NCBI RefSeq assembly: GCF_003334405.1
Contig: NZ_QOWM01000047.1
Length of the DNA stretch: 1,133 nt
Reading direction: 5' to 3' (one strand)
Source: Escherichia coli
GTDB lineage: Bacteria > Pseudomonadota > Gammaproteobacteria > Enterobacterales > Enterobacteriaceae
Made by a program: the position numbers and the translations under genes
In this document: positions 1 through 1,133 of the stretch, piece by piece
Position numbering within the stretch: the first letter of the stretch is position 1
Layout of the letters: every line of letters begins with the position of its first letter
The notes under the pieces: generated by a model
The model's database searches: none
Seen by the model: only the letters and a program-made list of their open reading frames with translations
What the model was told of the DNA's origin: nothing

Positions 1-1133
1 AAAAACTGGATCGACAAAGAAGAATATCCGCAATCCGCAGCCATCGACCTGCGTTGCGTAAATATGGTTGCCGATCTGTGGCATGCGCCTGCGCCGAAAA
101 ATGGTCAGGCCGTTGGCACCAACACCATTGGTTCTTCCGAGGCCTGTATGCTCGGCGGGATGGCGATGAAATGGCGTTGGCGCAAGCGTATGGAAGCTGC
201 AGGCAAACCAACGGATAAACCAAACCTGGTGTGCGGTCCGGTACAAATCTGCTGGCATAAATTCGCCCGCTACTGGGATGTGGAGCTGCGTGAGATCCCT
301 ATGCGCCCCGGTCAGTTGTTTATGGACCCGAAACGCATGATTGAAGCCTGTGACGAAAACACCATCGGCGTGGTGCCGACTTTCGGCGTGACCTACACCG
401 GTAACTATGAGTTCCCACAACCGCTGCACGATGCGCTGGATAAATTCCAGGCCGACACCGGTATCGACATCGACATGCACATCGACGCTGCCAGCGGTGG
501 CTTCCTGGCACCGTTCGTCGCCCCGGATATCGTCTGGGACTTCCGCCTGCCGCGTGTGAAATCGATCAGTGCTTCAGGCCATAAATTCGGTCTGGCTCCG
601 CTGGGCTGCGGCTGGGTTATCTGGCGTGACGAAGAAGCGCTGCCGCAGGAACTGGTGTTCAACGTTGACTACCTGGGTGGTCAAATTGGTACTTTTGCCA
701 TCAACTTCTCCCGCCCGGCGGGTCAGGTAATTGCACAGTACTATGAATTCCTGCGCCTCGGTCGTGAAGGCTATACCAAAGTACAGAACGCCTCTTACCA
801 GGTTGCCGCTTATCTGGCGGATGAAATCGCCAAACTGGGGCCGTATGAGTTCATCTGTACGGGTCGCCCGGACGAAGGCATCCCGGCGGTTTGCTTCAAA
901 CTGAAAGATGGTGAAGATCCGGGATACACCCTGTACGACCTCTCTGAACGTCTGCGTCTGCGCGGCTGGCAGGTTCCGGCCTTCACTCTCGGCGGTGAAG
1001 CCACCGACATCGTGGTGATGCGCATTATGTGTCGTCGCGGCTTCGAAATGGACTTTGCTGAACTGTTGCTGGAAGACTACAAAGCCTCCCTGAAATATCT
1101 CAGCGATCACCCGAAACTGCAGGGTATTGCCCA
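1..1133 (+). CDS. gadB: Glutamate decarboxylase (PLP-dependent, group II decarboxylase family), internal fragment truncated at both ends; about residues 82-458 of the 466-aa GadA/GadB protein
   Basis: Frame 1 on the + strand is open across the whole window (377 codons, no stops). The translation matches the E. coli GadA/GadB sequence as I recall it, including the SxSGHK PLP-lysine motif (codons at 568-585), the IDIDMHID segment (463-486) and the C-terminal region [17 protein letters not shown] (1081-1131). Codon usage (CTG, CCG, GGT, CGT, AAA rich) is typical of E. coli. GadA and GadB differ almost only in the N-terminal residues, which are outside this window, so the gadB symbol is a guess between two paralogs. 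Confidence 0.96.
568..585 (+). other. PLP-binding active-site motif S-A-S-G-H-K; the Schiff-base lysine codon AAA is at 583-585 (Lys276 in GadB numbering)
   Basis: Direct translation of 568-585 gives SASGHK. An S-x-x-x-H-K motif carrying the pyridoxal-phosphate lysine is characteristic of group II PLP decarboxylases. The residue number follows from window codon 1 being Lys82. Confidence 0.85.

Follow-up and report, generated by a model that had tools for sequence, protein, structure and literature searches.

A probable gadA fragment of Escherichia coli encodes the wild-type pH-responsive beta-hairpin of glutamate decarboxylase

Introduction

What do 42 bases inside a fragment of an Escherichia coli glutamate decarboxylase gene encode, is the encoded element intact, and how much does it tell about the pH response of the enzyme? 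The beta-hairpin of residues 300–313 is described as one of three pH-dependent moving parts of this enzyme (PMC12961736, PMC10133459, PMC11357613); the range is stated explicitly in PMC12961736, and the identical range is given, citing Capitani et al. (2003), in PMC10133459 and PMC11357613. An earlier note on this DNA had placed this hairpin in codons 219–232 of the window (the whole stretch of 1133 bases that was analysed), considered it unaltered and took this to suggest normal pH gating. We conclude with high confidence that the segment is the wild-type beta-hairpin (residues 300–313) of E. coli glutamate decarboxylase, a mobile active-site lid whose tip carries the conserved Tyr305-Leu306-Gly307.

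Results and discussion

Identity of the gene fragment

The 1133 bases constitute one open frame throughout (plus strand, frame 1; Table 1). A sequence search of the PDB aligned residues 1–377 of the translation to residues 82–458 of the 466-residue E. coli GadA/GadB with no mismatch, i.e. 377/377 amino acids are identical to PDB entries 1xey, 1pmm and 2dgk, and codon 1 of the window corresponds to residue 82 of the 466-amino-acid chains of 1xey (GadA) and 1pmm (GadB). In agreement with this identity, the translation scored 597.9 bits against the glutamate decarboxylase profile TIGR01788 (cutoff 380.4), the query being a fragment, and matched Pfam PF00282 (group II PLP-dependent decarboxylases) with E=4e-99.

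Table 1. Features located in the window, with positions counted from its first base.
Feature	Position	Strand	Detail
Inner part of a glutamate decarboxylase gene, probably gadA	1..1133	+	Gene nt 244–1376; residues 82–458 plus 2 bases of codon 459
Asp86 to Glu89 codons	13..24	+	KNWIDKEE opens the window
His275-Lys276 (PLP-binding lysine)	580..585	+	CAT AAA in frame; kept in 95% and 94% of family representatives
Mobile beta-hairpin of the PLP-binding domain, residues 300–313	655..696	+	Translation, numbering, literature
Tyr305-Leu306-Gly307, hairpin tip	670..678	+	Kept in 94%, 92% and 89% of 62 representatives
Gln309-Ile310-Gly311, returning strand	682..690	+	E. coli residues in 3%, 8% and 3% of 62 representatives
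Residues 452–458 (PKLQGIA), first 7 of the 15-residue autoinhibitory C-tail	1111..1131	+	Translation

The amino acid sequence of the window cannot tell the two E. coli paralogs apart, since the five amino acid differences between GadA and GadB (residues 3, 5, 6, 9 and 22) all lie upstream of it. The genes themselves are distinguished by their surroundings, gadA adjoining gadX/gadW and gadB lying upstream of gadC, and the window carries no flanks. The nucleotide sequence of the window shows 0 differences from nt 244–1376 of gadA of strain K-12 MG1655 and three from K-12 gadB, all of them synonymous (window positions 399, 456 and 936). Among the matches listed, those with 100% identity are annotated gadA and are located between ccp and gadX/gadW; a chance match is ruled out for the window, its full 1133 bases being 100% identical to annotated gadA genes. 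Judged by its nucleotides, the window is therefore probably the gadA paralog, by virtue of three synonymous sites only and in a pair of genes that undergo gene conversion. The earlier note spoke of GadB; the protein is the same over this region, and the DNA is that of K-12 gadA (0 vs 3 nucleotide differences).

Copies of gad genes in E. coli

The DNA of the window was found in all 5426 complete E. coli genomes, with two places in the median genome. In the region of the window, K-12 gadA and gadB differ at three nucleotides, 26 of their 31 differences being concentrated in nt 1–243 of the gene; over the window region, 19–39 nucleotides separate K-12 gadA from the gadA alleles found in other strains. 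The two paralogs of one genome thus resemble each other more closely than orthologs from different strains do. Gene conversion between the two genes would be expected to leave this pattern, which Bergholz and co-workers reportedly described in 2007. Some genomes matched the window at as many as 10 places, and plasmid-borne gad copies were found at six places with the full window as query and at five with the hairpin segment, which suggests occasional extra or fragmented gad copies in E. coli. In strain TUM10008 (NZ_CP135658.1, 2480903–2482812) the match to the window is split in two, and an IS1A-family transposase is annotated between the parts; an IS1 insertion appears to have disrupted one gad copy of this strain.

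Position and structure of the hairpin

The 42 bases of the segment (plus strand, frame 1) are codons 219–232 of the window and residues 300–313 of the enzyme, as the earlier note had it; translation, PDB numbering and comparison with gadA and gadB of K-12 MG1655, both of which give an identical peptide at these residues, bear out the position, and the published hairpin range bears out the name. The view that the hairpin is unaltered likewise stands, the peptide being an exact match to the sequences of the reference GadA/GadB structures. The identification is correct but ordinary, as this is a well-described textbook element with nothing novel about it.

An AlphaFold2 model (mean pLDDT 91.8), computed from GadA aligned to 60 representatives of the family, places two strands at residues 301–305 and 308–312, connected by a two-residue turn, Leu306-Gly307. 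A turn at residues 308–311 was also considered and was rejected, given that the model puts it at 306–307; it follows that the conserved Tyr-Leu-Gly forms the tip of the hairpin and that Gln-Ile-Gly lies on the returning strand. The pLDDT falls locally to 85–87 at the hairpin, compared with 96–98 in its flanks, a dip that is compatible with mobility of the segment and is no proof of it. Among solved structures, the model fitted E. coli GadA and the low-pH and neutral-pH forms of GadB best (TM 0.91–0.96); it is itself a monomer that has inter-subunit contacts and either pH state outside its reach.

Variation of the segment within E. coli

A sensitive blastn search detected the hairpin 42-mer in 5426/5426 complete E. 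coli genomes at a DNA identity of at least 90%, the best copy being at least 99% identical in 3165 records, 95–99% identical in 637 and 90–95% identical in 1629; the hairpin copies in E. coli number 10,808. A megablast search had found it in 3253 genomes, as if the segment were missing from about 40% of them; the shortfall arose because that program requires a 28-base word match, and blastn overturned it. Five variant E. coli alleles spanning these identity classes were translated, and in all five the hairpin peptide was constant, although rare non-synonymous hairpin variants may occur beyond them. These alleles carry one to five changes in the 42 bases, all at third positions (672, 675, 678, 684, 690 and 696), and differ from the window at up to 39 nucleotides over its full length. 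Because synonymous third-position changes have accumulated here with no amino acid change in the hairpin, the plus-strand reading frame is, as far as these alleles indicate, under strong purifying selection. D384E (window positions 907–909) was the sole amino acid difference within the window among the seven alleles compared; this conservative exchange is present in gadA of O157:H7 MB9-1 and in gadB of YZLc1-3.

The same data make it scarcely credible that the 42 bases carry an overlapping nucleic-acid signal, whether a structured RNA or a gene on the opposite strand: there is an ORF of 178 amino acids on the minus strand (574–1110), the longest antisense ORF, but an Rfam search of the window on both strands found no family reaching the threshold, and the free variation of third positions among natural alleles under a constant sense peptide indicates coding constraint on the plus strand only and suggests that the minus-strand ORF would be a by-product of codon usage.

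Conservation across the family

Among 1.84 billion representatives searched, 839 matched at E<=1e-30, and 62 near-full-length representatives, each no more than 63% identical to GadA, were aligned. Over its full length, the hairpin shows average conservation in this set (mean entropy 2.15 bits vs a protein median of 2.18 bits). The average conceals two very different halves. Tyr305-Leu306-Gly307 at the tip is kept in most representatives (Table 1) and is nearly invariant also in the alignment of GadA with 60 representatives, whereas the entropy of Gln309-Ile310-Gly311 is at the 79th–93rd percentile of the protein; Asn302, Gln309, Ile310 and Gly311 are choices of the E. coli lineage, found in only 3–8% of the representatives. 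Variability of the segment, which the earlier note had regarded as telling against its reading, was thus encountered in part: the tip is near-invariant (89–94%), while few stretches of the enzyme vary more than the returning strand.

Lid or plug

The identity, numbering, secondary structure and conservation of the hairpin were computed in this study, and its pH-dependent movement and the plug mechanism are taken from the literature. In the account from the De Biase laboratory (PMC12961736), the hairpin shuts the way into the active site in the acidic, active form and is slightly displaced at neutral pH by the C-tail, which plugs the site; mutants that lack the C-tail or are altered at His465 are active at higher pH (PMC12961736). 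A review places the emphasis differently, the hairpin and the C-terminus together causing steric hindrance to the substrate at neutral pH (PMC11357613). We give more weight to the former account because that laboratory co-authored the structures. The mechanism would then run as follows: in the acidic form, the hairpin would cover the entrance to the active site, with the C-terminal tail being disordered; at neutral pH the tail (residues 452–466) would become ordered, push the hairpin slightly aside and plug the site, and His465 together with the imine of Lys276 and PLP would form a substituted aldamine, which would switch the enzyme off. Closure of the hairpin at acid pH may also deliver a catalytic or gating tyrosine, Tyr305, as homology would suggest.

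The earlier note had the hairpin and the C-terminal tail occlude the active site at neutral pH. This version is partly supported, since the review (PMC11357613) agrees with it; by the account of PMC12961736, however, the tail is the plug and the hairpin is displaced, and the hairpin would be more a lid of the active form than a plug at neutral pH. The opposing reading makes the hairpin mainly an inhibitory gate, which would join the partner subunit's C-terminal tail in plugging the site at neutral pH; we consider this unlikely. The joint hindrance of access by hairpin and tail described in the review speaks for it, but the hairpin covers the entry at acid pH and is displaced by the tail at neutral pH in PMC12961736, and mutants without the C-tail or with an altered His465 are active at higher pH, which already points against the hairpin as the plug. 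Moreover, the tip tyrosine is found in about 94% of the family, including Arabidopsis GAD1, which is more in keeping with a catalytic or lid role than with an inhibition specific to E. coli.

Apart from the hairpin, several other elements of the enzyme can be located in the window. Lys276, which forms the aldimine with PLP (PMC12961736), is present in its translation together with His275, Asp243 and Thr212, residues that are 89–97% conserved in the family alignment. Near the start of the window are Asp86, which binds the gamma-carboxylate of the substrate and reorients with pH, and Glu89, an earlier engineering target for the pH range (both PMC12961736). The autoinhibitory tail is represented by its first seven residues; K-12 gadA, which is identical to the window, encodes the intact full tail PKLQGIAQQNSFKHT. 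His465 lies beyond the end of the window at residue 458, and the N-terminal residues 1–15 also fall outside it. The step from an unaltered hairpin to normal pH gating consequently goes too far for a window that stops at residue 458, short of His465, and that begins after residues 1–15.

The segment matters little beyond annotation, being a wild-type textbook element of an enzyme of glutamate-dependent acid resistance. There are two useful corrections, namely that the plug would be the C-terminal tail with His465, the hairpin with its conserved tyrosine being mainly the lid of the acidic form, and that normal pH gating cannot be vouched for from a window that stops at residue 458.

Comparison with known glutamate decarboxylases

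The closest known systems are the E. coli enzymes themselves, GadA (1xey) and GadB (1pmm at low pH, 1pmo at neutral pH and 2dgk, the autoinhibited aldamine), with which the protein is the same over 377 residues, the window being only a fragment of them. The glutamate decarboxylase of Levilactobacillus (Lactobacillus) brevis (5gp4) possesses a homologous beta-hairpin or flexible loop, Tyr308-Glu312, within the hairpin VFKVSYLGGELPTM, which shares the Tyr-Leu-Gly-Gly tip. It differs from the E. coli enzyme in its overall sequence (about 44% identity) and in its returning strand, which reads Glu-Leu-Pro in place of Gln-Ile-Gly. The L. brevis loop Tyr308-Glu312 is important for catalysis, and Tyr308 is crucial for decarboxylation (PMC7761890). 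This tyrosine and Tyr303 of the Bacteroides thetaiotaomicron enzyme align with E. coli Tyr305, for which we infer a catalytic role by homology. A literature search turned up no paper that names Tyr305 in connection with the hairpin.

Mutations in the hairpins of the L. brevis and L. plantarum enzymes (S307N/S308N and E312S/E313S) raise activity near pH 6 (PMC10133459, PMC7761890), and the E. coli counterparts of the mutated L. brevis residues S307 and E312 are Asp304 and Gln309. With L. brevis E312S and S307N as the parallel, it is conceivable, if rather improbable, that the returning strand Gln309-Ile310-Gly311 helps, besides the C-tail, to set the pH at which the E. coli Gad enzymes switch off. 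Were this so, hairpin variants would offer a means, as yet little exploited, of tuning E. coli GadA/GadB. The split between an invariant Tyr-Leu-Gly tip and a variable Gln-Ile-Gly strand gives enzyme engineering a modest practical hint.

The hairpin of the B. thetaiotaomicron enzyme also shifts its conformation with pH, and it is said to sit nearer the substrate site (PMC11357613); a structure of the Y303F mutant of this enzyme has been deposited (7x4l). Both the B. thetaiotaomicron enzyme (7x4r/7x4y) and Arabidopsis GAD1 (3hbx) have the same fold as the E. coli enzyme and a homologous hairpin with Tyr-Leu-Gly, at 44–45% identity. To go by the title of a 2009 report by Gut and co-workers, plant GAD1 is said to be additionally regulated by calmodulin.
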